From IMG/VR virus record IMGVR_UViG_3300005326_000015: DNA of 49,811 nt. One strand, 5' to 3'. The notes beneath the pieces were generated by a model. The model was not told the origin of the DNA. It did no database searches and saw only the letters and a list, made by a program, of their open reading frames with translations. Both the position numbers and the translations under genes were made by a program. This DNA is from a virus. Of this stretch, positions 3,337 to 16,290 are shown piece after piece (the stretch's first letter is position 1; every line of letters begins with the position of its first letter).

Positions 3337-3740
3337 ATGAATTTATTGTAAACCTACAAGAGCAACTATTAGGATTGACCCTGATAATGTGTGCTGCCTT
3401 ATTCTTCCAAATTGGCAACATGTTTGCCGGAGCCTATGTAAACAAGGAAGCCTTTGACATTAAAAAGTTCTTTGCTGGATTCAAAGGGGTCGCCATCCTA
3501 TACATCCTGTTTGTATGGCTGACTACCGGAATCACCGCGTTGCCTTATTTACTTGAAATGACCGGATTGATGACGCTTTCTACTGAAATTACAGGAATTA
3601 TTACTTATGCTGCCATTATATTCTACTGGGGCAAATACACGATTGACAGAGCCAAAGACATGGCGGATAAACTACTATTTATTAAAGACTTTCGCAAACC
3701 TGAACTGACTGAAGAACAAAAAGTTGAAGGTATAGGATAA
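3333..3740 (+). CDS. Holin-like membrane protein
   Basis: 135 aa with three hydrophobic segments (LTLIMCAALFFQIGNMFAGAYV, VAILYILFVWLTTGITALPYLL, ITGIITYAAIIFYWG) and a charged C-terminus. It lies immediately upstream of the peptidase gene. Confidence 0.6.
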   Translation: MNEFIVNLQEQLLGLTLIMCAALFFQIGNMFAGAYVNKEAFDIKKFFAGFKGVAILYILFVWLTTGITALPYLLEMTGLMTLSTEITGIITYAAIIFYWGKYTIDRAKDMADKLLFIKDFRKPELTEEQKVEGIG

Positions 3741-4525
3741 TGAATGTCTTCGCCCTTTGGGAAGCCTACTTGACTCAGGGATTCAAAAGCACACATATGG
3801 CCAATGACTACGGATGGATTCGCTTAAATTTAAGTAAACCTCCGGTGTATAGTGTCATGAAAGGTGTGGTCATTGCATCCTATTACAGTTCAGGCGGTGG
3901 AAACATTGTGGCCATTCTTGATGATTCAGGGGACTTCCACTGGTATCAATGGCGCTATGTCCACTTAGATGTTAGGTATGTAAAAATAGGAGACAGAGTG
4001 GATGTCGGACAAGTGATAGGGCTTGGAGGAAACACAGGCACAAACAGTACTGGACCTCACCTTCACATTGAATGTCTGATTGTCCCGAAAGGATACCGTG
4101 CCTTCATTTACGCAGACCGATTGAAGTATGCTGTTGACCCACGCTTCATCATGAGCACGATTCCTGGTCAACCACTGAGAGGAGAACTAATTCAAATGAG
4201 CGTCGTAGATACAAGTCTTTTACCAAAAGCCTTCCCGACCATCACGAACTTGCTACTTCGTAGTTCAACAAGTACAGCCACTTCCTTGAATAAAGTTGGT
4301 GTTTATGTACCAGCATCAGGATTGCCGTTAGCAGGAATTATTGATGTCGCAGGGTTCAAATGGTGTGCCTTGTGGTATAACAATAAAATTGTTTATGCCG
4401 CATTGAAGTACCTGAGAATCGAACCGAATGTCAAAGAAGTCGAAAAAATAGTGGAAGTTGAAAAACCGTTTGGTCCGGTAACGCTTACACAAGGTGATGT
4501 TTCAATCACGATAAAGAAGGGGTAA
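3740..4525 (+). CDS. Peptidase M23-family endolysin with C-terminal (wall-binding?) domain
   Basis: HxxxD (HMANDYG) and GNTGTNSTGPHLHIE motifs are characteristic of M23/LytM peptidases. TAATG overlap with the holin gene. Confidence 0.8.
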   Translation: MNVFALWEAYLTQGFKSTHMANDYGWIRLNLSKPPVYSVMKGVVIASYYSSGGGNIVAILDDSGDFHWYQWRYVHLDVRYVKIGDRVDVGQVIGLGGNTGTNSTGPHLHIECLIVPKGYRAFIYADRLKYAVDPRFIMSTIPGQPLRGELIQMSVVDTSLLPKAFPTITNLLLRSSTSTATSLNKVGVYVPASGLPLAGIIDVAGFKWCALWYNNKIVYAALKYLRIEPNVKEVEKIVEVEKPFGPVTLTQGDVSITIKKG

Positions 4526-4540
4526 TACCCCTTTTCTTTT
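4519..4540 (+). terminator. Rho-independent terminator
   Basis: GGGGT-aat-ACCCC hairpin containing the stop codon, followed by TTTTCTTTT. Confidence 0.65.
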
Positions 4541-4560
4541 GTGCCATAATAGTGTATAAT
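4532..4560 (+). promoter_or_regulatory. Possible promoter for 4600 gene
   Basis: TATAAT at 4555..4560 (also TGcCATAAT at 4542..4550). The -35 is weak (TTTTCT). Confidence 0.4.
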
Positions 4561-4599
4561 ATCCGCAGGGGTACAATGTAACAAGAGGAGCGTGATTCG

Positions 4600-4866
4600 A
4601 TGGACCAAGCAACATATGTAGGCATGTTTATATTCACTGTGGTAACACTTTCAGGGCTATTGGCGGTGTTTGCCAAAATCGTCACAGCGTTTGCAAATGC
4701 CGTGGCAAAATTAGATAATCTTATTCAAAAGTTTGAACTCTCAGATGCAACCAACCGGAGAGAGCACGAAGAATTATTTACGCAACTGGATGCACACAAT
4801 GAGATGATAAAAGAAGCCCAATGGTTTTGTAAATTCCAACATCCTGACCAGCCCCGAAGAATATAG
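4600..4866 (+). CDS. Small N-terminally anchored membrane protein (BhlA/UviB-like holin-type, tentative)
   Basis: 88 aa with RBS GAGGAG. One N-terminal TM segment (VGMFIFTVVTLSGLLAVFAKIV) followed by a charged helical tail. Confidence 0.55.
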   Translation: MDQATYVGMFIFTVVTLSGLLAVFAKIVTAFANAVAKLDNLIQKFELSDATNRREHEELFTQLDAHNEMIKEAQWFCKFQHPDQPRRI

Positions 4867-4877
4867 GGGCTTTTATT
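4850..4877 (+). terminator. Rho-independent terminator
   Basis: AGCCCC-N10-GGGGCT hairpin spanning the stop codon, followed by TTTTATT. Confidence 0.6.
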
Positions 4878-4899
4878 ATGGATTTATATATGATATAAT
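4871..4899 (+). promoter_or_regulatory. Promoter of the Gln-rich protein / giant ORF unit
   Basis: TGATATAAT extended -10 at 4891..4899 (the same 9-mer as at 3062..3070). The -35 is weak. Confidence 0.5.
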
Positions 4900-4927
4900 T
4901 GAACCGTAATCAAAGGAGAGTGATATT

Positions 4928-6064
4928 ATGAGTTATAACTATGGACCTACTATGCTCGCCGACAGTGGCGGATACAGTAATACAACCACGCAAGACCCTA
5001 TGAAAAACTGGTTGCAAGAGCAAATCGACCTACTCATGAGAGGCGGCGGTGGAGGAGGCTCTGCATCGAACTATATGACGAAAGCCCAAGGAATGTTAGG
5101 TCCCTTGGATTTAAGTTCGTTTGAAGAACTTCGCGGTGTCATGAATGACCAGTACAACACCAGCAGCAATTCCTTGCAAAATCAGTACAACACCATGCTT
5201 CAGCAATTAGAAAAAGCAGGCACTCAAAATAAGCAGGCTTTCGGTAAAGGCAGAGCATCCATTATGGAAAACTCATTTGAGCGTGGCCGTGATGCGTTAA
5301 GAGCCTTGTCCTCAAGAGGTATGGCTGCATCCGGACTTCAGCAATTAGGTGATGTTCAGCAACGGATGGAAACAGGCCGTCAGACTTCCGGTTTGGCTGG
5401 TCAATTCTATGATGTTCAGGATAAACTGGCAGACAGCCAGGTCCAGGGTCAACAAAACTATGAGACCCAAAAACAGACCCTTGAGAATTCATTGAATCAG
5501 CAAATGGCTCAATTAAGTGCTCAGGAACTTCAATTCAAAAATTCTTACCAGCAGCAAGTGGCTTCCCTGGCAATGCAGATGCAACAACAGGCAGCGCAGG
5601 CTTCTGCTGCGAAATTAAACAGGGACCTGCAATTATTATCATTAAGACAGCAAATGGAACAAACTGGAGGAGACCCATTGACTGCTCCGGCAAATCAAGG
5701 GGGCATGATGGCTATTGCGATGGAACCTGGAGCAAATGACCTTGTTAAAATTGCTCAATTACAATCACAATTCAACTTGACACCTGAACAGGCAAAGTCC
5801 TACTTAGGTAAAGTTGAGGGACAATTACAACAACAAGTGTACCAGCAGGAATATAGCACCTTAATGAGTGCCGCACGGTCAGGCAAATACACACCATCCC
5901 AAATGAAGGAAATGATAAAAACCCTGAAGGACAGCGGTATTACCTTGAAACCTTCAGATGAATCCATCTTAATATCTATGGTCACTCCGGCAAGTAAAAA
6001 CACAATCGGCGGTGTGACGGACGCTTACGGTTACAGAGAATTGCTGGGGGACCAGTGGAAGTAG
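4928..6064 (+). CDS. Gln-rich coiled-coil protein (putative internal virion / ejection protein)
   Basis: 378 aa with RBS AAAGGAGAG. Contains a GGGGGG tract and long Q/N-rich heptad-like regions. Co-transcribed with the giant ORF. The functional call rests on position and composition only. Confidence 0.55.
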   Translation: MSYNYGPTMLADSGGYSNTTTQDPMKNWLQEQIDLLMRGGGGGGSASNYMTKAQGMLGPLDLSSFEELRGVMNDQYNTSSNSLQNQYNTMLQQLEKAGTQNKQAFGKGRASIMENSFERGRDALRALSSRGMAASGLQQLGDVQQRMETGRQTSGLAGQFYDVQDKLADSQVQGQQNYETQKQTLENSLNQQMAQLSAQELQFKNSYQQQVASLAMQMQQQAAQASAAKLNRDLQLLSLRQQMEQTGGDPLTAPANQGGMMAIAMEPGANDLVKIAQLQSQFNLTPEQAKSYLGKVEGQLQQQVYQQEYSTLMSAARSGKYTPSQMKEMIKTLKDSGITLKPSDESILISMVTPASKNTIGGVTDAYGYRELLGDQWK

Positions 6065-6075
6065 GAGGACATAAC

Positions 6076-9000
6076 ATGTCAAAAATTGATGAACTATTGA
6101 ATCGTTTAGGCCAATCAGCAGCCAAGGGTACGATTGATGCCATCGGACAAACACAGGGGGCGGCTAATAAGTCGCCTCTTTTGGAAGTTCAAAATCAAGT
6201 AGATAACTTAGCAGCGCGTATGCAGGGTTCGGGCATAGACCCGACTCAATTCACAGATACCCGAAACCCTTTAGAAAAGATGTTGAATCTTCGTCCTGAC
6301 CAAAATCTTTTGTTTGACATCTTTGAAGTCATTAACCGTCCTCAGCAAGCCTTGTTTGGAGGAATCCAGCATTTGCAAGAAGGCGGAGATTTTCTAAAAG
6401 GCATGGAACAAGGACTTACAAGGACAGGGGCTGAAGAATTCTCCGGCGGTCAAATCCTCCGTAATATGTTTTCAGGAGGCAAGCGCGAAGATGGCACGAT
6501 GGACTGGACAGACTGGGTTGGTTTTGGGTTGGATGTATTTGCTGACCCTGCTGACCTTGCTTTTCTACCTGTAAGTGCAGTAGCCAATGTCGGACAAGCA
6601 GCAACGAAATTGACAGGTAAAGCATCCACGAAGATGGACAACCTGATTAAAGGTGGCATGGCTGCCTTAGGAAAAACAGATGTAAATACCGTGGCTAAAG
6701 TAGCCAATGTGGCTGATGATGTCATGGATGTCGGAGAAAAGACCATGGCTTCCATGGCTAAAGATTCTTATAAACTAATTCGCGAAGGAGAGAAATTTGT
6801 ATCTCCTACGGATTTAACTATGCGTGCTTTATTTGGCACCGTGTCCTTTGGATTAAAAGGAGCGGACGCTAAGTTGGCTGAACCTTTAATGACGGTTCTT
6901 GGGAAAGCAGAAGACTATGGCAACTTCAAGAAAGTTGTATCTAACTTCTTCAATCAAACGAAAGCCTTCTCAAAGGAAGCCGTGGCTAACATTCGCTTGG
7001 CTTTTGGTGAAGAAGCCTTTGCTAAGAAATACATGTATGAGGCTTTGAAAGCCACCGATGAATTGTTAGAATCCTGGGCCGGACAATTAGGAGTTACACC
7101 ACAGCGCTTGTCAGAAATGATGGGCGAATACTGGTCGGTCACTTCTCCGGAGCAAATGATGAGAGCCTCCGATATTCTGTTAAAACAACGCGGAGCACAG
7201 TTGATTCCTTATTCGGATGAAATGTATGAGAGTTTGAGCAAAATGGTCAACTCAGAGCAAGCCATTGGTGATTTGATGCCTGTCATCGAATTTGAAGGTT
7301 TGTCGTATATTGACCTTCGTAAAATAACCAGGGAAATGGTTGACCAAAGTGCAAAAGAAACTTCGTTGGCTATCCCTAAAATGATTAAACATTTGGATGT
7401 AGATAACATCTCAAAGTATGCAGATATGCCTTTATTTGAGCAAGCATACACGGACTGGTATGTTCAATACCAACGCATGAGAAAAGGTTTATGGTCCATT
7501 CAAGGCTCTGAATTCGGTATGGGTACAGAGTACTTGAGAAATGTGCTAACGGAAGATGCAAGACATGCACTGGCTGAAGTGGATGCGTTGAACCATGTCT
7601 TTGATTTAGGCGGACAGACCACCAACAAGACTATGGGAGACCCGACGCTGTTTGCTGGCCGTAAGTATGGGGCTGACCCGATTACCGCAAGTAACTGGAT
7701 TAAGGCTGAGCGTACTTTAGATACCATGGAGCGTATGGAAAAGGTGTTAGGAGCACGCGCTAAAGTAAGCAATGCTACCGCAGACGCTATTCAAGCGGCT
7801 AAACTTGTTGAAGCCCAAGCCCTTGAAGCAGGAAGTAAGATTAAAATTGACCGTCGTGTCCGTGACCTGTTAGATGAGTTTATGGAAGAAACAGGTGTCA
7901 CCCAAGACATGCTGGATATTTATACCGTTATGATGGAAAACAAACTGGCTAAAACTGAAGTGGGCCGTGACTTGATTCGTCAAGCCAAAGCCGTCGGTTT
8001 AGTTGGAGAAGATGAGAAAATCTTAGATGTGTCTTCTCATCGCTTTACTGTGGGAGAAAAGAGTGGCTCTACCTTAATTGAGACTCTTGACCCTGAAGAC
8101 TATAACCGTTTGGTGTCATTAAAAGCATCAGACCCTAATTTCCAAAGTAAAGTATCGAAAGAAGTTTATAATGCCATCGGCTCTCAACCGATTCCTATGA
8201 AGTTCAAAGATGGTACGGCTTTAACGAAGCAACAGGCCAAAGGTTACAATAAATTGACCACTTGGGTTCAAAGACTAAAAGAACTTCGTGCTCCGACATT
8301 GACAGGGATGAAGTCTGAAGGTATCATGCAGATTGTTGATGACACAGTATGGTCCAAAATTGATGATGAATCCTTGAAGGGTATTGCATACAGAAGCAAA
8401 GTCATTGAAGCCACGGACGATATTGCAGAAGGTTTGACCAGTGTGCCTTTGAAACATGTGGATTTGGAAGAAGCCGCACAAGGCTTGGCCAAAGAACCTG
8501 ACTTCTTAAAGAAAGTTGTTGACAACTTAAACAAGGCCACAAACAACGCATCGTCTGAAGTTGCTTTGGGTGATTTGATTAGCAGACCTGAATCTATTAT
8601 TGACTACGCGCGCCGTGAAGTTTTAAGACAAGCACGCGAACAGTACACATATAGGCAAATGAAGACAGGCATCCAGGAATTACTTGGACGCGCTGCAACG
8701 GATGAAGATATGGCAAGAGCCGTCGCTTTGGCTGAAGCAGGAAAACCTTTGCACCCACGCTTATTTGACCCGAACTTTAACATTTGGCAGCGTACCATCG
8801 ACAATTTGGACGGTGACTTCGCTAAGGCCAAAGAGTTAGGTAAAGGTTTGAAGGATGGCACTTATGACCTCAAGACAGGTAAGAAACTTGACCTTGAAGG
8901 TGATGACAGTTACATGGTGTCCTTTGAGCAATCTTCGGACGCTTACACACCGGAAGAATACAATAAAATTATCAAAGAACTCATGGACGAAACTGGCAGC

Positions 9001-12000
9001 GAAGCCTATTTAGGTGTTTACGGTCAGCCTGAAATCAGTTTTAAGGTGGCTACGGAAGAAGAGGCCATGGCCTTAGCCAAGCGCTTTAATCAAGAATCCA
9101 TTTACTTTAACGGTAGAGTATTAGAGGATGGTACAAAAGTCCCTGCTGACTTGATTATGAATCCGGACTACAATCCTGCAACGAATCAAATTATTCGTGA
9201 TGTTGTGGAAGAAGTCCCTGTAACCAAAGCGCCGGAGCCTATTATCACTCCTGAAGACATTAAAGCACCGGAACCTGTCAAGGCTCCTGAGCCTGCTGCT
9301 CCTGCTGAGAAAACATATCTTGATAAGAAAATTGAACTTGATGAATTTGAGACAAAAGAATTGTCTTCGATAATGAATATCAATAAGCGGGGGACTTCTG
9401 TAAAACCTTTCAGAAAGAAAGTCTTGTCGAAAGACCTTGATGATTATATTGCTAAAGGATTAAGTGATGATGTTGGCGAAGATTCGTTCTTCAGAGCCTT
9501 CAATATTACAGACCATAAAGGGGCAAAAGGACGCTTAGAAGGAAGAGATTATGAACCTTTGACAAAAGCGCAATATGCAGACCGTGGGCTTGAAAAGTAC
9601 ACTCCTTTGAACAGTAACGCCCCAAAACTCAGAGTTGTGGACAGAGAACTGGCACAAAACCATCATGAAATCAAACGCGTACGAAGAGCCATGGAAAAAC
9701 TTGACGCGCAGATGGGTACAAATTATGCCAACACTGGCTTGCTGGGTGAGATTTACAAAGAAGTAGATGAAACAGCCGATGCGTTGGCAAAGATGAAACC
9801 TGAGGGGCATCAGATTTATAAGACAGCCGCAGACAGCAGAGACAAATTAGTTGGTAAACTTCAAAAAGACTTGAAACTTCCTTCTAAAAAATCCGTTGAT
9901 GCGTTGGCAAATGAAACATTAGTTGATAATGCTTTCTCAAACAGCCGTGTAGCCAGTGAGTTGCGACTAAGGGCAGCAGATTATCCTGTTGTTGACTCTT
10001 TCACGATGCGAAGTGAAGTTATGGAAGTGTTGTCTGAAGATGCTTATGCAATGATGACAGGCAACATTTTAAGTAAAGAATTTAATGACCGTTTTGGAAC
10101 CATTGCTGGAAGAACAAACCTAAATACACCTTTCTCAGAAGAAACTCAGACTTACCTTCAAAGATTGTACGATGAGGTTCAAAAAGTTAGACAGGGTTCC
10201 TTCCCTTATGCAAAGTTTATGCAAGATGGTGTACTTGATGAAGAGAGAGCCTTTGAGGCTTTAAATGATTACATGAAGTCTGTCAACGGAATGTCAGTGC
10301 CTGAATTGCAAGAAGAGATGAGAAGGGCTTATAACGCTATTGACGAGATTAAAAGGACAAAATATGACTTGAGACAGGTGCTTGAATCAGAAGAAGCATT
10401 ACAAAATCTTCAAAACACCTATCAAAAAACAAACAACAAGGCCTATCACTATGGTGACTTAGGTATAGGCAGAGATACGACTTTCAAAAATATGGGTAGT
10501 AGCAGAGGCACAGGGCACTTTGGTACAGGCACTTACTTCTTGGGAGAAGAGGCAGCAGAAAGTACAGGCAAAATATCGTCTTATGCAGGCCGCCCTTTGA
10601 ATGAAGTAAACTTTGATGACTATGCTACATTTAAGCCAGCAACAGAAGAAGCAGGATTTGCTTTACATGATGGATTAAAAGAAATCAACGCTGTCAGTGA
10701 CAATGTGCAAAGCATGTGGACTGGCCGACCTTACACCGATGCTGAAGGATGGACCCACTATCCTGAGACGATGCAAATGACAGACCGTGAAATGGCTAAA
10801 ATCGTTAGAGAAGCCATGACCAACGGTAAGTTGAGCACAGACTTGAGTAAAGTTATGGATGATGCCTTAGATTACAACCAACGAGCCATTTCCGCTGGTA
10901 AAATTGATTTATATTATGCTAACTTATTTGATTCATTTGTAGAAGAATTTTCAGAAAAGGGAGCAGACACCTTGAACAGATATTCTGCCTTGCTACCTGC
11001 TAATTTGAAAACTGTGTTCGATGATTTGATTGCAAAGACAAAGGATGGTGTGGCTGAAGTTTCCGACTTTACAGGAAGAGAAGTTGGTGACATCGTAAAT
11101 ATCTTTGAAGGCATGTCGAACATTCATAAAGCCTCCAACAAAGCCTTGAAGAAGTTTGAGAAGGCAGGCTTGCCAAGGATGAACAAGAGCGTTGAAGAAT
11201 TTGTGACTTCCTTGATAGAGACAGTTAAAAAAGGTATGTCAGGCGATGACATGGCTCCGACGGCTTCAACCAATTTCATGAAAATGATTGGCTATGAAGG
11301 TATAGATGTCCGTGGATTGAAAGCATTAGACAACACTACCTACGGCAGCGTTATATACGATGTCAAAAAGGCTGCACAGGAAGCACCGGAAGCGGCTGCT
11401 GTTAAGGTAACACCGGATGACTTCGCTGCTAAAGCACCTGAAAAGGTAACGGAGACTCTGCCGTTTGACTACAACACCAATGACTACAAAGGGACTGTAC
11501 CTGCACGCACCTTAAATGCTCAAAGCAAAAAAGTCACGCTGGCTACTCCTGAAGAGTTTAATGTCATGGAATCCTTGTATAAAAGGTCAGGACGAAGGGC
11601 TTTTGCAGATGACCCTTATGTCTTTGAAAGATTAGTTGCAGGGAAACCTGGCATGAAAATGAAGACTATATTTGAGATTGAGGACACATTAAACAATATA
11701 AATCAAAAAATCAATGAAGGTACGATGAGCCTTACAGAAAAAGAACTGGATGACTTGTACACCTTGATGCAAAAGATTGATGCTGAATTCGGAACGGATT
11801 TGTCCAAACATTCAATACTTTCCAAAAAGAAATTTGATACTTATAACAAACGACTCAGTGACTACAACGCGCAAAAGTTGGCTTCGACACCTAAAGTGGA
11901 CGATTCTGTGGACATCCTGGATGAAGTCACCGGAAAAGCGCCGGAGCCTGAGTTGGATATTAACGCGATGTTCAAAGAGGCTGAGCCTCCAGTTCAAACA

Positions 12001-14139
12001 GCGAAGGCCGTTAACCCTGAATTTGAATATGAAGCATTGAACGACGCAGACTTTGTAACAGACTTGAACGCTAAAGTTCAAATAAATCCATTCGTTGAGA
12101 AGGTTTCCGTGAACCAGGCCACCTTATTCCAGTTCGATGACAAGACAATTCAGAAGTTAGCCGAGCGGATGAGAGCCAAAGGGATATTCACGGAGCAGCA
12201 AATTGCTGATATTACATCTCCGTTGGGTCAGAAGTGGTTAAACAAGTACATTGATGAGCACCACAAAACCGTGTTCCAAGGTACGGAAGCATATATTGAC
12301 AAGACTTTGAAGTGGTTGGATGACACTCAGGCTCAAAAGGTCTTCGAGACATCCGTCACAGCCTCTATGGCCGATTTGATTGAAACCTTGCCAAGAACAG
12401 TACGCTCAGCCAAAGTGTTTGATGCAATACTGTCTCCGTCGGTGGCTGAAATGGGAAGCCCGAACTCACCATTCCAATGGATTGAATTCGAGGATGAACT
12501 GGTCAGCGCTGTTAAAAACGAACAGGGTGAAGTCATTAAAACCATTACCAAAAAGAAGATGCCAAAAGCACCGTTGGGCTTCAAACGGATGTCCAATTCC
12601 CAGGTGCAGGAGTTTATTACAAAGATTGAGCGCTTAAACAATTTCATTCAAAGTGATGAGTTGCTGAGCGTGGCTGACTGGATGAAGAGTCAACTTGCGA
12701 AGAACGCAAAGAACCCAACAGGCCAGTTAGTGATTGAGGCCAATGTGGCGCGGGTGCTTGAGTTGGATTACAACAAAGTATCCGGAGCGTTGCTGAAATT
12801 CGTTGACTTCTCAAACAACTTATTCAAACGAAACAAACTGTTATCCCTTGCCTTCAACATCCGCAACAGCATCGGTATTACGACGAACATGTTCTTGTCG
12901 GGTATGGAGTTTACAGACATTGCGCGCAGTTTTGCAAGGGCAGACAACATCTTCAAACAAGGACCTGAATTGCTGGCCAGGGCTGCAAGAGCCGACATAA
13001 ACACGCTGAGCAAGATATTCAGTCCGGAAGAGATGAAGATATACCAGGCCTATGAAATGTTCATTAAAGGACAGTTCACGCTGCCAAGAACCATAAAGCA
13101 AGCGATTGCGGAAGGTCTCTCCGGCTCAGGGTCTGAGTTGATGGATTTGGATGGAATTAAAAAGGACATCACGAAAAATGCTAAGATGCCTGAATGGCTC
13201 CAAAAGAGCAAGGATGCCCTGGATACTGTGTCGATTGTCAATGGATGGGGAAATGAAACTGTGGATGCTTATGGTCGTATGGCTGTAATGGTGCATGCCA
13301 TGGAAAATCCTGAGTACCTGCAAAAGTTGATGGTCCAGGACCCGATTGCCGCCGTTCGCTTAGCCATGTTTGACCCAAAGAACCTGTCCTCTTATGAGAC
13401 AGAGATTGCCAAGCGGGTCATCCCATTCTATTCATTTACGAAGCAGAACTTAGTCTATCATATGCAAAACCTGCCAAACAATGCGGTCCGCTACAACAGA
13501 ATCCAAAAAGGATTGCGCAGCGCATGGAATGGTATGGGATTAAAACAAGAAGATTTGGAAGCCTACAAACTGGAGCAAATGTATATCCCGATTCCAGGGA
13601 TGTCAGCGGATGGCAAGTACTTCGCCATTAAAGCGAACCTACCACAATCCGACTTCGGCGAATTCTTAGGTAATCCAATTCAACGAGTGCTTGCATCCAC
13701 TTCCCCGCTCATTCGGGCCGGATTTGAAGTGGCAACCAACAAGCAAATATTCACCGGACAGGAAATATCCGAATTCCCTGGTCAGCGCAGCAGCACGATG
13801 CCATTCCTTGATAGGAATACAGAGTACTGGCTGAGCCAAGCAGGGTTGGATGTTCCAATGAAAGGTCTTACCGGATTATACAACGCAGCAACAGGGCAAG
13901 ATGTCCAAGGAGGTCTCATGCAAGCGTCAAACATTATCTCTCAAGGGTCCAAAGAGCAAGGTCAACTAAACCGCGCCTACCAAACTTTAGAGAGATTGCA
14001 ACAAGGTGTCCGCTACCTTAAACAAGAGGAAAAGGACTTACTCAAACTGGCTGAAATAAACAGTCCGACCCCAGCACTGGATGCAGCCCAAAACAAAATG
14101 GATGCACTTATGGCTAAACTAAAAAAAGGCCCCCGATAA
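6076..14139 (+). CDS. Giant multidomain (polyvalent-type) protein, 2,687 aa, with putative ADP-ribosyltransferase-like segment
   Basis: Uninterrupted 8.06-kb ORF. ATG at 6076 lies 6 nt after AGGAGGA (the track start 6055 is a GTG inside the previous gene). Pro-rich KAPEP linkers at 9226..9309, ~11430 and ~11935 suggest domain boundaries. The motif YHYGD..(N22)..GHFGTGTYFLGEE..(N19)..LNEVNF lies at 10444..10614. A bidirectional terminator follows. Confidence 0.9.
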   Translation: MSKIDELLNRLGQSAAKGTIDAIGQTQGAANKSPLLEVQNQVDNLAARMQGSGIDPTQFTDTRNPLEKMLNLRPDQNLLFDIFEVINRPQQALFGGIQHLQEGGDFLKGMEQGLTRTGAEEFSGGQILRNMFSGGKREDGTMDWTDWVGFGLDVFADPADLAFLPVSAVANVGQAATKLTGKASTKMDNLIKGGMAALGKTDVNTVAKVANVADDVMDVGEKTMASMAKDSYKLIREGEKFVSPTDLTMRALFGTVSFGLKGADAKLAEPLMTVLGKAEDYGNFKKVVSNFFNQTKAFSKEAVANIRLAFGEEAFAKKYMYEALKATDELLESWAGQLGVTPQRLSEMMGEYWSVTSPEQMMRASDILLKQRGAQLIPYSDEMYESLSKMVNSEQAIGDLMPVIEFEGLSYIDLRKITREMVDQSAKETSLAIPKMIKHLDVDNISKYADMPLFEQAYTDWYVQYQRMRKGLWSIQGSEFGMGTEYLRNVLTEDARHALAEVDALNHVFDLGGQTTNKTMGDPTLFAGRKYGADPITASNWIKAERTLDTMERMEKVLGARAKVSNATADAIQAAKLVEAQALEAGSKIKIDRRVRDLLDEFMEETGVTQDMLDIYTVMMENKLAKTEVGRDLIRQAKAVGLVGEDEKILDVSSHRFTVGEKSGSTLIETLDPEDYNRLVSLKASDPNFQSKVSKEVYNAIGSQPIPMKFKDGTALTKQQAKGYNKLTTWVQRLKELRAPTLTGMKSEGIMQIVDDTVWSKIDDESLKGIAYRSKVIEATDDIAEGLTSVPLKHVDLEEAAQGLAKEPDFLKKVVDNLNKATNNASSEVALGDLISRPESIIDYARREVLRQAREQYTYRQMKTGIQELLGRAATDEDMARAVALAEAGKPLHPRLFDPNFNIWQRTIDNLDGDFAKAKELGKGLKDGTYDLKTGKKLDLEGDDSYMVSFEQSSDAYTPEEYNKIIKELMDETGSEAYLGVYGQPEISFKVATEEEAMALAKRFNQESIYFNGRVLEDGTKVPADLIMNPDYNPATNQIIRDVVEEVPVTKAPEPIITPEDIKAPEPVKAPEPAAPAEKTYLDKKIELDEFETKELSSIMNINKRGTSVKPFRKKVLSKDLDDYIAKGLSDDVGEDSFFRAFNITDHKGAKGRLEGRDYEPLTKAQYADRGLEKYTPLNSNAPKLRVVDRELAQNHHEIKRVRRAMEKLDAQMGTNYANTGLLGEIYKEVDETADALAKMKPEGHQIYKTAADSRDKLVGKLQKDLKLPSKKSVDALANETLVDNAFSNSRVASELRLRAADYPVVDSFTMRSEVMEVLSEDAYAMMTGNILSKEFNDRFGTIAGRTNLNTPFSEETQTYLQRLYDEVQKVRQGSFPYAKFMQDGVLDEERAFEALNDYMKSVNGMSVPELQEEMRRAYNAIDEIKRTKYDLRQVLESEEALQNLQNTYQKTNNKAYHYGDLGIGRDTTFKNMGSSRGTGHFGTGTYFLGEEAAESTGKISSYAGRPLNEVNFDDYATFKPATEEAGFALHDGLKEINAVSDNVQSMWTGRPYTDAEGWTHYPETMQMTDREMAKIVREAMTNGKLSTDLSKVMDDALDYNQRAISAGKIDLYYANLFDSFVEEFSEKGADTLNRYSALLPANLKTVFDDLIAKTKDGVAEVSDFTGREVGDIVNIFEGMSNIHKASNKALKKFEKAGLPRMNKSVEEFVTSLIETVKKGMSGDDMAPTASTNFMKMIGYEGIDVRGLKALDNTTYGSVIYDVKKAAQEAPEAAAVKVTPDDFAAKAPEKVTETLPFDYNTNDYKGTVPARTLNAQSKKVTLATPEEFNVMESLYKRSGRRAFADDPYVFERLVAGKPGMKMKTIFEIEDTLNNINQKINEGTMSLTEKELDDLYTLMQKIDAEFGTDLSKHSILSKKKFDTYNKRLSDYNAQKLASTPKVDDSVDILDEVTGKAPEPELDINAMFKEAEPPVQTAKAVNPEFEYEALNDADFVTDLNAKVQINPFVEKVSVNQATLFQFDDKTIQKLAERMRAKGIFTEQQIADITSPLGQKWLNKYIDEHHKTVFQGTEAYIDKTLKWLDDTQAQKVFETSVTASMADLIETLPRTVRSAKVFDAILSPSVAEMGSPNSPFQWIEFEDELVSAVKNEQGEVIKTITKKKMPKAPLGFKRMSNSQVQEFITKIERLNNFIQSDELLSVADWMKSQLAKNAKNPTGQLVIEANVARVLELDYNKVSGALLKFVDFSNNLFKRNKLLSLAFNIRNSIGITTNMFLSGMEFTDIARSFARADNIFKQGPELLARAARADINTLSKIFSPEEMKIYQAYEMFIKGQFTLPRTIKQAIAEGLSGSGSELMDLDGIKKDITKNAKMPEWLQKSKDALDTVSIVNGWGNETVDAYGRMAVMVHAMENPEYLQKLMVQDPIAAVRLAMFDPKNLSSYETEIAKRVIPFYSFTKQNLVYHMQNLPNNAVRYNRIQKGLRSAWNGMGLKQEDLEAYKLEQMYIPIPGMSADGKYFAIKANLPQSDFGEFLGNPIQRVLASTSPLIRAGFEVATNKQIFTGQEISEFPGQRSSTMPFLDRNTEYWLSQAGLDVPMKGLTGLYNAATGQDVQGGLMQASNIISQGSKEQGQLNRAYQTLERLQQGVRYLKQEEKDLLKLAEINSPTPALDAAQNKMDALMAKLKKGPR
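12064..12081. repeat. TTGAAC-N6-GTTCAA palindrome (copy in giant ORF, in-frame LNAKVQ)
   Basis: ttgaacgctaaagttcaa; TTG is a codon in the ORF frame. Confidence 0.9.
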
Positions 14140-14152: not shown

Positions 14153-15043
14153 TTATGCCTTCGTTTTACGGAAGGTAGCATTGACATAAGTGGTGCCAGG
14201 TTTGCGGTACATATCCAAGTTCAAGTCAGGATTGTCTAAGGTCAACAAGGCTTCATCCAAGCCTCCTTTACGGAAGACTTCACTGATGGACATGCTGAAT
14301 CCGATGCCACTAAACTTCACATTCTCATAGCGTTCTTTGAACCATTCACTCAAGTCTTTTTCCCTGGCTTCAAGTTCCTTGATTTCCTGCTTCAGTTCAA
14401 ACAGTTCATAGGCTTTTTCTTCAGCCTCTGTGCTGAATTCGGCTTCTTTGATGACAACCCCTTGAGCGTTGTATTTTGAATTGTAAAGTTCAATAAGGTC
14501 ATAAGGGAAGTTTTTATAATCTTCAATACCATTGAGGCAAGCGAACACAAAGTCCACCATTTGCTCCATAAGCCCGATAAGTTCATCGTCGCGGCGAATT
14601 GTCGTGTAGATAGGCTTTCCCTTCCACATCCCGCAAAGCAGCGCCTGAGTGGCCCCTGTGGCCTGCATATAGGCTTGTACTTGAATCGCATAGCCTTTAC
14701 TCTGTGTGAATGGCTCTTGAGCGTTGGAGATTTTACATTCAACGACGGTCATTTCACCGTCGATAATGGCCATACCGTCGGTTTTACAGCGGATGCGTTC
14801 ATCGAAGGCATAGCGCACTTTTTCGTTGCGCTCTCCGATGCTAATTTGAAGTTTGTTCTCAAAGTAGTTGAGAGCACCTTCTTCAAGGAATGTTCCCCAG
14901 TCCATGCGGTCTTGCGCATCCTCTGTGAATTCCTGTTCGTCAATACCTAAATCGAAACGGATTTGTTCGGTTGGTGAATTGAATCCTACACCGAAGTAGG
15001 ACCCCAAACTGGATGCTGTTAGAGTGAATCTTTCTTGTTTCAT
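14153..15043 (-). CDS. YqaJ/lambda-Exo-like PD-(D/E)XK recombination exonuclease
   Basis: 296 aa. The D...ECK signature (KTDGMAIIDGEMTVVECK) and overall layout are typical of YqaJ-type viral exonucleases. An annealase gene is present elsewhere in the same block. Confidence 0.7.
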   Translation of the reverse strand: MKQERFTLTASSLGSYFGVGFNSPTEQIRFDLGIDEQEFTEDAQDRMDWGTFLEEGALNYFENKLQISIGERNEKVRYAFDERIRCKTDGMAIIDGEMTVVECKISNAQEPFTQSKGYAIQVQAYMQATGATQALLCGMWKGKPIYTTIRRDDELIGLMEQMVDFVFACLNGIEDYKNFPYDLIELYNSKYNAQGVVIKEAEFSTEAEEKAYELFELKQEIKELEAREKDLSEWFKERYENVKFSGIGFSMSISEVFRKGGLDEALLTLDNPDLNLDMYRKPGTTYVNATFRKTKA

Positions 15044-15046
15044 GGG

Positions 15047-15301
15047 TTAACCCTCCATTTTCGTTATTTCATAATCAAAGAATAAACGGATGCTCTTCTT
15101 ATTCTTCCCCATCCCGCCATTATGGCCGTGAGGTACTGGCTCTCCAAAATCGACATAATACATATCCATTTCCTTGTAGGCCTCGTATCGGTCTATTTTG
15201 GCAACGGTACCTACCATGTCCTGGTAGATTTCGGAATTAGGTATTGTGAGGTCAGGAGAGGTCACTTTGACTCTATCTCCTACTTTGATGATTGCTGGCA
15301 T
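15047..15301 (-). CDS. Hypothetical small protein (SH3/KOW-like N-terminus?)
   Basis: The start at 15301 (MPAIIKVGDRVKV) follows GGAGGG and overlaps the upstream stop (TAATG). The longer track ORF has no RBS. Confidence 0.55.
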   Translation of the reverse strand: MPAIIKVGDRVKVTSPDLTIPNSEIYQDMVGTVAKIDRYEAYKEMDMYYVDFGEPVPHGHNGGMGKNKKSIRLFFDYEITKMEG

Positions 15302-16290
15302 TATTGCCCTCCTTTCAAGATGGCGGACCATCGTTTGACAATATAGTCATTTTGCGGCTCATACAATGGCAGCCGCTCAGGTGATGTTGGAAAATCTTTC
15401 CAGTCATAATTTCCATGAGGCACTGTTGGGTCATCCGTGAATGGATACCATACCACAGGTGTGCCTAAGGCTTGCGCTTCCAATGTGACCATCCCGAAGG
15501 TCTCAAAGTCACTGAGCATAAACAGGAAGTCTGCATTTCGCATATACGGATAAGGGTTTGCGCGTGGTCCTATAAACAAGGAGCGCTCATGGTTAAGCAA
15601 CTCATCAGGGACATATTGCCACGCGGCTTCGACATGAGGCTCTCCGACAATGACCAGGAATAGGTCTTCTCTTTCATTCAGGATTTCCAAGGCGCGCACC
15701 CATCCTTTTTCCGGAGAGATGCGACATACCATTAGGCCTCTCAAATACCCATCAGGCCACAGGGTCTGTAAACCTTTCATGAGGTCAGGCATGATTTTGC
15801 TTGATTTTCTCATGATGTTATTTACATCTAATATGTTTGGGATGACATGATATTCTGAGCGTGGCACTTCCAAACTGAAGGTCTCATATTGCCATTGACT
15901 GACAAACACTTTAGGCATGTCTTCAAATCCCAACGGTCCTTTTAGAAGACTCCGCGGGCAATGCAGCCAAGCCACTTTTCGGGAGGATGTCACAAACTCA
16001 GAGATGTCTTTCTTGCAGAAGGGTGAGCAGTAAACCAACACATCCACATGCTGCGGCTTCTTGCTGCGCTCTACACGCGTCACTCCTCCCACTCTTCCAA
16101 CTCTATCATGACATAAGCGCTTTGTAAACATAATTTCGTCAAAAACCTTAATCATTTTGTCGTCACCATCCTCATAACAGAGGCTGACATCGAACTCCAT
16201 GGTGTGTAATAGCATCCGTGCCAAATTGTACACCGCCATCTCAACTCCTCCTAAGACTGGCTTAGGTATATAAAACATTATTTTTTCCAT
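15301..16290 (-). CDS. GT-B fold glycosyltransferase (GT1/GT4-like)
   Basis: 329 aa. C-terminal ...FMLSDFETFGMVTLEAQALGTPVV... matches the E-x-FG-x4-EA-x2-G-x-PV signature of family 4/1 glycosyltransferases. Confidence 0.75.
   Translation of the reverse strand: MEKIMFYIPKPVLGGVEMAVYNLARMLLHTMEFDVSLCYEDGDDKMIKVFDEIMFTKRLCHDRVGRVGGVTRVERSKKPQHVDVLVYCSPFCKKDISEFVTSSRKVAWLHCPRSLLKGPLGFEDMPKVFVSQWQYETFSLEVPRSEYHVIPNILDVNNIMRKSSKIMPDLMKGLQTLWPDGYLRGLMVCRISPEKGWVRALEILNEREDLFLVIVGEPHVEAAWQYVPDELLNHERSLFIGPRANPYPYMRNADFLFMLSDFETFGMVTLEAQALGTPVVWYPFTDDPTVPHGNYDWKDFPTSPERLPLYEPQNDYIVKRWSAILKGGQ

Follow-up and report, generated by a model that had tools for sequence, protein, structure and literature searches.

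The viral sequence IMGVR_UViG_3300005326_000015 from IMG/VR (49,811 nucleotides; hereafter the window, meaning this whole stretch of DNA) contains a giant open reading frame (ORF) and, within it, a conserved domain that is split by a long insert. We lean towards interpreting this domain as a divergent, insert-split relative of ART-PolyVal, an ADP-ribosyltransferase (ART) domain, with the triad H1465/Y1494/E1748, borne by a virion-delivered giant protein and modifying a host macromolecule with nicotinamide adenine dinucleotide (NAD+). An earlier note on the same DNA had described an H-Y-E motif at 10441-10640, likened it to PARP and to the ART domains of polyvalent proteins, and proposed E1517 as the catalytic Glu. 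Residue numbers are those of that note and count from GTG 6055. The giant ORF and the parts of the domain are as follows:

6055-14139, (+) strand: giant ORF, 2694 codons counted from GTG 6055, carrying the ART-like domain.
10429-10701, (+) strand: N-half of the domain, amino acids (aa) 1459-1549, delimited by phmmer mapping, conservation, AlphaFold secondary structure and hhalign to ART-PolyVal.
10447-10449, (+) strand: H1465, candidate strand-1 His of an H-Y-[EDQ] triad, conserved and aligned to the His of ART-PolyVal YHGT.
10504-10539, (+) strand: R1484-F1495, RGTGHFGTGTYF, loop and strand 2, conserved and aligned by hhalign to ART-PolyVal 'fG.GfYFt'.
10534-10536, (+) strand: Y1494, invariant (217/217), aligned to GxGfYF.
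10603-10605, (+) strand: E1517, the Glu proposed by the earlier note, variable and in strand 3.
10702-11244, (+) strand: variable, mainly helical insert (aa 1550-1730) that splits the domain between strands 4 and 5.
11245-11379, (+) strand: C-half of the domain (aa 1731-1775), with helix STNFMKMIG, strand 5 YEGIDV, the D1759-N1760 loop and strand 6 GSVIYD.
11296-11298, (+) strand: E1748 in 'GYEGID', best candidate for the third (strand-5) residue, from conservation and from hhalign and HMMER alignment to the Asp of ART-PolyVal 'GYDGvi'.

The domain is bipartite in every homologue, and phmmer maps the two pieces to aa 1459-1549 and aa 1731-1775 of the giant ORF. The N-half runs from strand 1 (AYHYG) through a Gly-rich loop (RGTGHFGTG), strand 2 (TYFL), a helix and strand 3 (NEVNF) to strand 4 (TFKP), and ends with the start of another helix that holds H1538, K1542 and N1545. 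The insert between the halves measures about 180 aa in the window copy versus about 45 aa in standalone homologues of ~200 aa, and its insertion point is identical to that of the variable insert of ART-PolyVal. At 10441-10640, the (+) translation gives exactly AYHYGDLGIGRDTTFKNMGSSRGTGHFGTGTYFLGEEAAESTGKISSYAGRPLNEVNFDDYATFKP, inside ORF 6055-14139, and the earlier numbering of H1465, Y1494 and E1517 (codons at 10447, 10534 and 10603) is correct when counted from GTG 6055, as are the spacings of 29 and 23 aa. Since all homologues match in two pieces, those coordinates take in only about two thirds of the N-half. The C-half had been missed, and with it E1748, which sits 231 residues past E1517, beyond the helical insert.

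Searching 5.8 billion proteins with aa 1440-1800 as query returned 88 proteins. A profile search of 1.84 billion representatives, clustered at 50% identity, retrieved 843 clusters at E<=1e-3 and 350 at E<=1e-30, and in most of the clusters the domain is embedded in proteins of 1000-5100 aa. Being shared by 88 homologues and 843 representative clusters, the motif is not a product of chance. Megablast and tblastn with the domain and with its short homologue P0003 found no match in 50,697 phage records.

Conservation was counted in 217 family members. The strand-1 position is His in 199 and Arg in 14 of them, and Y1494 is present in all, so that these two residues of the originally proposed triad stand. 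At the position of E1748, we counted Glu in 138 members, Asp in 30, Gln in 9, Asn in 37, Gly in 2 and Ala in 1, which gives an H-Y-[EDQ] signature in 82% (E/D/Q = 177). R1484 (215/217), T1486 (213/217) and H1488 (209/217) are kept almost throughout; R1484, T1486, G1487, G1490, G1492, Y1494 and Y1523 are invariant or nearly so. Beyond the triad, the near-invariant polar set comprises R1484, T1486, H1488, Y1523, H1538, T1739, K1743, D1751, D1759, N1760, S1765, Y1768 and D1769. The family is real and, as judged from these alignments, strongly constrained. H1465 (strand 1), Y1494 (strand 2, GTGTYF) and E1748 (strand 5, GYEGID) are its candidate active-site triad.

One subgroup (P0067, P0073-P0079 and P0063) has Arg in place of the strand-1 His ('GYRSG' or 'GYRAG'), keeps GTGFYF and has Glu or Gln in strand 5. 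Both DUF3990 and the hidden Markov model (HMM) of ART-PolyVal find their best matches in this Arg-variant subgroup.

E1517, in contrast, is variable (K50/E39/A29/T29/I24/V14 of 217) and lies in strand 3, not strand 5. A PARP/diphtheria-toxin-type triad H1465/Y1494/E1517 within 10441-10640 would fit the local motif order and spacing as first described, and the loop 'TGHFGTGTYF' is indeed like 'TGYMFGKGIYF' of PARP. Against it, the strand that holds E1517 aligns to strand 3 of ART-PolyVal and the domain needs its C-half 230 residues downstream. The proposed likeness to PARP was not recovered at profile level either: hhalign of the family against a shallow PARP1/2 profile gave a non-significant 3.9%, a value that is uninformative because true ART-PolyVal itself reached only 42.6% against this profile. 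We rejected the E1517 triad since this residue is not conserved, and regard it as scarcely credible. Also discarded were 'YGSVIYD' as the equivalent of PARP 'YNEYIVYD', since the alignments make 'YGSVIYD' strand 6; a PD-(D/E)xK nuclease built on 'GID...YDLK', since the Lys is missing in proteins ending 'YDI'; and a protein kinase built on 'GTGHFGTG' and 'H..LK..N', since the domain falls far short of kinase size and the model shows the second motif as a helix.

For comparison with ART-PolyVal, 25 genuine Pfam sequences of that domain were taken from the CLANS supplement of PMC7955679 and aligned; the family core, the N-half and C-half joined, served as hhalign query. The match had a probability of 86.7% (P=4.4e-6, score 38.9). 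Each half aligned to the matching half of ART-PolyVal, with scores of 26.9 for the N-half alone and 18.5 for the C-half alone. The path was co-linear and paired 'gYH.GD' with 'vYHGT', 'GTGtYF' plus helix with 'G.GfYFt..A..Y', 'V.F..Y.LyKP' with 'v.vyLni.NP', insert with insert, 'MK.lGY[E]GID' with 'l...GYDGvi' and 'GSVIYD' with 'e.vvF'; the loop and strand 2 (R1484-F1495) formed the segment of highest confidence. The real score exceeded all 300 shuffles, that is, 150 column shuffles (mean 11.1, standard deviation 2.3, maximum 20.9) and 150 shuffles of 8-column blocks (mean 19.8, maximum 34.4), and the reversed profile scored 17.6. As a positive control, a known ART-PolyVal subfamily reached 97.5% against true ART-PolyVal.

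An HMM of the 25 ART-PolyVal sequences, run against 218 targets, had a best independent E-value (i-E) of 2.2e-6 (22 bits) and matched 13 proteins at i-E<1e-3, in a register that agrees with hhalign, including 'gyDGvi' on 'GY[DE]GID'. In the reverse search with the family HMM, 15 real ART-PolyVal sequences ranked above the first reversed decoy. ART-PolyVal has its His in strand 1, its Tyr in strand 2 and its Asp in strand 5 (Iyer et al., PMC5512222). In our alignment the conserved Asp is that of 'GYDG', and E1748 of the family is aligned there. DUF3990 (PF13151), a family of the Pfam ART clan (PMC7955679), gave sub-threshold matches of 15-16 bits (gathering score 32.2) to the GxGFYF-helix-strand 3 segment of P0073-79, the sole ART-clan signal from Pfam. 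Together, we regard the statistical support for homology to ART-PolyVal as moderate, not overwhelming. The ART idea of the earlier note is partly supported: the profile comparison speaks for it, whereas no curated ART model matched at threshold.

Many of the homologous carriers are clearly polyvalent proteins, a class of large proteins from phages or conjugative elements in which several unrelated effector domains are joined and whose genes accompany those of the virion (Iyer et al. 2017). Giant family members also contain ddrB-ParB, PBECR5 and MuF_C, which are hallmark polyvalent-protein domains (Iyer et al. 2017, PMC5512222). Other architectures include MuF (PF06152) with the family domain at the extreme C-terminus, the family domain followed by ADPrib_exo_Tox (P0028), and GNAT, an ART-PolyVal-like domain and then the family domain. 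In the MuF-fused homologues, the domain thereby occupies the C-terminal effector slot. Standalone copies are encoded within head and packaging modules; some lie between terminase and portal, others between MuF and scaffold/capsid. Bona fide ART-PolyVal (E 1e-33 to 1e-5) is present in one to four copies in 51 of the 111 family proteins of at least 700 aa (46%), and in 29 proteins it lies within 40 residues of the family domain, on either side. This adjacency is compatible with tandem paralogy or with functional partnership; polyvalent proteins typically contain ARTs in tandem (PMC5512222), so paralogy fits as well. The resemblance to ART domains of polyvalent proteins that had been noted earlier is thus supported, both by the profile match to ART-PolyVal and by the polyvalent-type and MuF-fused carriers.

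Some homologues and their loci deserve separate mention. In P0010 (600 aa) and its relatives P0011 and P0014-P0018, two further modules, in both of which Pfam finds nothing, flank the domain: an N-terminal one ('ITIYRATTGD...WITLSKSYA') and a C-terminal one ('LYHGG...LILSTSVS...QGEIVLVP'), which by eye look like R-S-E and H-S-E ART motifs. Locus L003, a jumbo-phage-looking contig of 373 kb with a sigma factor and a methylase, carries an ADP-ribosylglycohydrolase (PF03747) gene at 14583-15383, ~6 kb from standalone P0056 and on the opposite strand; no such gene was seen at the other four loci examined. On a 184 kb contig (L006), a Cas12f1-like TNB (TnpB-type) gene at 3862-5133 lies ~3 kb upstream of standalone P0067.

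Members of the ART superfamily share a split beta-sheet, with strands 4-5-2 and 1-3-6, and an NAD+ cleft. The AlphaFold model of the window copy was mediocre (predicted local distance difference test, pLDDT, 68), and its Foldseek matches (sigma-70, bestrophin) reflect the helical insert only and are uninformative. In contrast, the short homologue P0003 was modelled confidently (pLDDT 88.3, predicted template modelling score 0.83). Short strands appear in the secondary structure of both models at YHYG, TYF(L), (N)EVNF, TF, (G)ID and SVI. The models thus predict six core strands in ART order, with a long insert between strands 4 and 5. Foldseek with the P0003 model found no significant match in either structure database: the best PDB match had E=2.1, with MTX as the sole ART listed (E=8.6), and the best BFVD match had E=0.022. 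The weak BFVD matches are large polyvalent-type phage proteins, one of them gp26 of phage Pf-WMP3. The ART fold that the earlier note expected was therefore not recovered by structure search, in spite of a confident model.

This blank structural result is one of several points that weigh against an ART-PolyVal relative. PF18760, whose gathering threshold is 31.2 bits, gave no match to the giant ORF (E<=10) and was not among the top families for 54 members (E<=1). No Pfam or PHROGs model reached threshold for the window copy, and NCBIfam found nothing in eight family members. The window copy scored 0.5 bits against the ART-PolyVal HMM, and no member more than 22 bits. Most of the hhalign score comes from the GxGxYF-helix segment. 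The PARP1/2 comparison described above was not significant, and hhalign against A3, a narrow ART-PolyVal-like subfamily taken from the middle domain of P0063, stayed below 1%, although A3 itself reaches 97.5% against true ART-PolyVal and is simply too narrow and divergent. Asn takes the third triad position in 37 of the 217 members (17%). R1484, H1488, H1538, D1759, N1760, S1765 and Y1768, the most invariant residues, are without an equivalent in the ART active sites described so far, so that the domain may work by a different chemistry. No recurrent macro-domain or ADP-ribosylglycohydrolase neighbour, a possible antidote, occurs among the loci examined, and the virion packaging of the giant protein is suggested by gene order alone. 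Phmmer and hmmsearch against PDB sequences returned chance matches only, the best being a chitinase helix-strand 'MKDLGFDGIDI' (E=0.22).

Some of these observations would fit a new fold, either an enzyme or an accessory module, that is not an ART and shares merely the Gly-rich, nucleotide-binding-like 'GxGxYF' loop. Such a module would work alongside ART-PolyVal, for instance by binding the same target or processing its product, and function beside ART-PolyVal would explain the frequent adjacency. The confident model lacks a structural neighbour in PDB or BFVD, the high-confidence hhalign segment spans just 22 columns, and the invariants R1484, T1486, H1488, H1538, K1743, D1751, D1759, N1760, S1765, Y1768 and D1769 exceed an ART triad. 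The domain also adjoins bona fide ART-PolyVal in the 29 proteins mentioned and is fused to ADPrib_exo_Tox in P0028. However, both halves align to the matching halves of ART-PolyVal with a combined score above every block shuffle, the HMMER alignments are co-linear through 'GYDGvi', the reciprocal ranking places true ART-PolyVal above decoys, strand order and insert position are as in ART-PolyVal, and the adjacency also fits paralogy, tandem ARTs being typical (PMC5512222). We keep a new fold under consideration because of the blank Foldseek searches and the many extra invariant residues, and consider it unlikely. The stronger version, a structurally new enzyme fold that would function in injected phage proteins as the obligate partner of ART-PolyVal, is slightly less probable again. 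The role of such a fold might be to recognise ADP-ribosylated targets or process them further, or it might use another nucleotide cofactor via the R-G-T-G-H-F-G-T-G loop and the D-N/S/Y/D cluster.

The variation at the triad bears on a further reading, in which the domain derives from an ART and is catalytically different or inactive: a sensor or binder of NAD+ or ADP-ribose, an NAD+ glycohydrolase or phosphorylase, or a decoy. Asn in strand 5 (37/217) and Arg for His (14/217) would be in line with this, the ART superfamily includes NADases and phosphorylases (PMC9503650), and no copy matches the ART-PolyVal HMM more weakly than that of the window. Yet the window copy retains H, Y and E, the domain takes the effector position of MuF fusions, and many polar residues are strongly conserved over 843 clusters, which would argue for catalysis. 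We find this reading more doubtful than a new fold, and continue to favour an ART-PolyVal relative with the candidate triad H1465/Y1494/E1748.

Within the giant ORF, the ART-like domain is the only module that could be assigned; the remaining modules are without any match. Pfam and PHROGs searches of the whole ORF yielded noise only and no family, and tblastn of the whole ORF found no match in the 50,697 phage records. Together with the domain, the N-terminal (aa 36-279) and C-terminal (aa 2225-2670) regions of the ORF recur in one protein alone, P0113 (1563 aa), and a homologue search with the C-terminal chassis gave only two unnamed proteins. ATG 6076 is probably a more plausible start than GTG 6055: it is preceded by AGGAGG at 6064-6069 with a 6-nt spacer, and the GTG start as listed overlaps the upstream ORF. 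Starting at ATG 6076 would lower all residue numbers by 7. Three 'KAPEP'-type linkers, which may be flexible linkers or processing sites, partition the protein into modules, and the ART-like domain terminates at the second; standalone homologues stop at this same point. The linkers and a nearby peptidase gene are located as follows:

9220-9309, (+) strand: Pro/Ala/Glu-rich 'KAPEP' linker (aa 1056-1085) at the upstream edge of the module whose end is the ART-like domain.
11371-11454, (+) strand: 'AQEAPEAAAV...AKAPEKV' linker (aa 1773-1800), directly following the last strand of the domain.
11932-12009, (+) strand: third Pro/Ala/Glu-rich 'KAPEP'-type linker (aa 1960-1985).
3740-4525: 261-aa ORF that encodes an M23/M37 metallo-endopeptidase domain and lies two genes upstream of the giant ORF.

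Upstream of the first linker, the segment at aa ~935-1030 (window 8860-9140; 'YMVSFEQSSDAY...YLGVYGQPEISFKV..EEAMALAKRFNQESIYF') resembles a separate compact globular module. It had no Pfam or PHROG match, and none of the 217 family proteins contains a homologue of it.

The window amounts in essence to a podophage-like genome of roughly 50 kb. It encodes a large terminase, portal, major capsid protein, an internal-virion-like protein and a tail fibre; past the wrap-around follow more ORFs of the structural block, including the M23 peptidase, and then the giant ORF as its last gene. The structural gene order is thus terminase-portal-capsid...M23 peptidase-giant ORF, with the replication genes on the opposite strand. 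The nearest relatives of the window DNA polymerase are those of the Paenibacillus podophages API480 and SV21 (37%). API480 has the same layout, and its last structural gene, API480_16 (1631 aa, unannotated), is the positional analogue of the giant ORF. It was rejected as a homologue: the position is the same, but there is no sequence similarity. Phormidium phage Pf-WMP3 shows an arrangement like that of the window: its M37 internal protein, gp27, precedes gp26, a protein of 1495 aa in which the segment aa 1198-1377 resembles ART-PolyVal.

In the favoured reading, the giant protein that bears the domain would be packaged in the capsid, and the domain would be ejected into the cell together with the DNA. 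Once injected, it would transfer ADP-ribose from NAD+ to a protein or nucleic acid of the host at an early stage of infection; alternatively, it might act by plain NAD+ hydrolysis. Injected effectors, by which phages alter proteins or nucleic acids of the host within seconds of the onset of infection, are poorly catalogued, and the family described here is large (843 clusters at 50% identity) yet lies outside Pfam, NCBIfam and PHROGs. ART domains in injected phage polyvalent proteins are already known. New is this family, which its insert, the details of its motifs and the point where it ends set apart from ART-PolyVal. As an active ART, it would add a major insert-split branch to the polyvalent-protein ARTs, with the precise candidate triad given above; otherwise, it would be a confidently modelled domain that lacks a known structural relative and is a partner of ART-PolyVal. 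Under either reading, the short standalone homologues of ~200 aa, such as P0003, lend themselves to biochemistry and crystallography.

Among known systems, ART-PolyVal (PF18760; 'N4-ART' / Tox-ART-HYD2-related, Iyer et al. 2017, PMC5512222) is alike in the YHG His of strand 1, GxGxYF in strand 2, 'GY[D/E]G[IV]' in strand 5 and the variable helical insert between strands 4 and 5. Like the family domain, it resides in giant phage proteins and in fusions to MuF, and the two often share a polypeptide. In contrast to ART-PolyVal, the family escapes the Pfam model, has an extra residue in 'YH[YA]GD' and keeps an invariant loop 'R-G-T-G-H-F-G-T-G'. Its strand 5 has Glu in the majority, not Asp, with frequent Asn; it stops at a last strand 'YGSVIYD[LIV]' and lacks the 'E.vvF.P.QIKS...GTF' tail; H1538, D1759-N1760, S1765 and Y1768 are additional invariants; and its model has no ART-like Foldseek match. 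DUF3990 shares GxGFYF, the helix and strand 3 with one subgroup, but this match is below the gathering score, concerns the Arg-variant P0073-79 only and leaves the window copy unmatched.

PARP, an H-Y-E enzyme, is nearly identical locally ('TG[YH](M)FG[KT]G[IT]YF'), with its His ~30 residues earlier. Unlike PARP, the family lacks the helical regulatory domain, and an equivalent of the 'YNEYIVY' Glu does not occur where the earlier note had proposed one. Finally, T4 Alt and MuF-fused polymorphic toxins offer a parallel for delivery, in which effector domains of head or internal virion proteins are injected with the DNA (PMC5512222, PMC9503650); here, gene order suggests the same. Alt, an R-S-E ART, shows no detectable similarity to the family, and the carrier in the window is not MuF but a 2694-aa protein outside known families, at the end of a podophage structural module.

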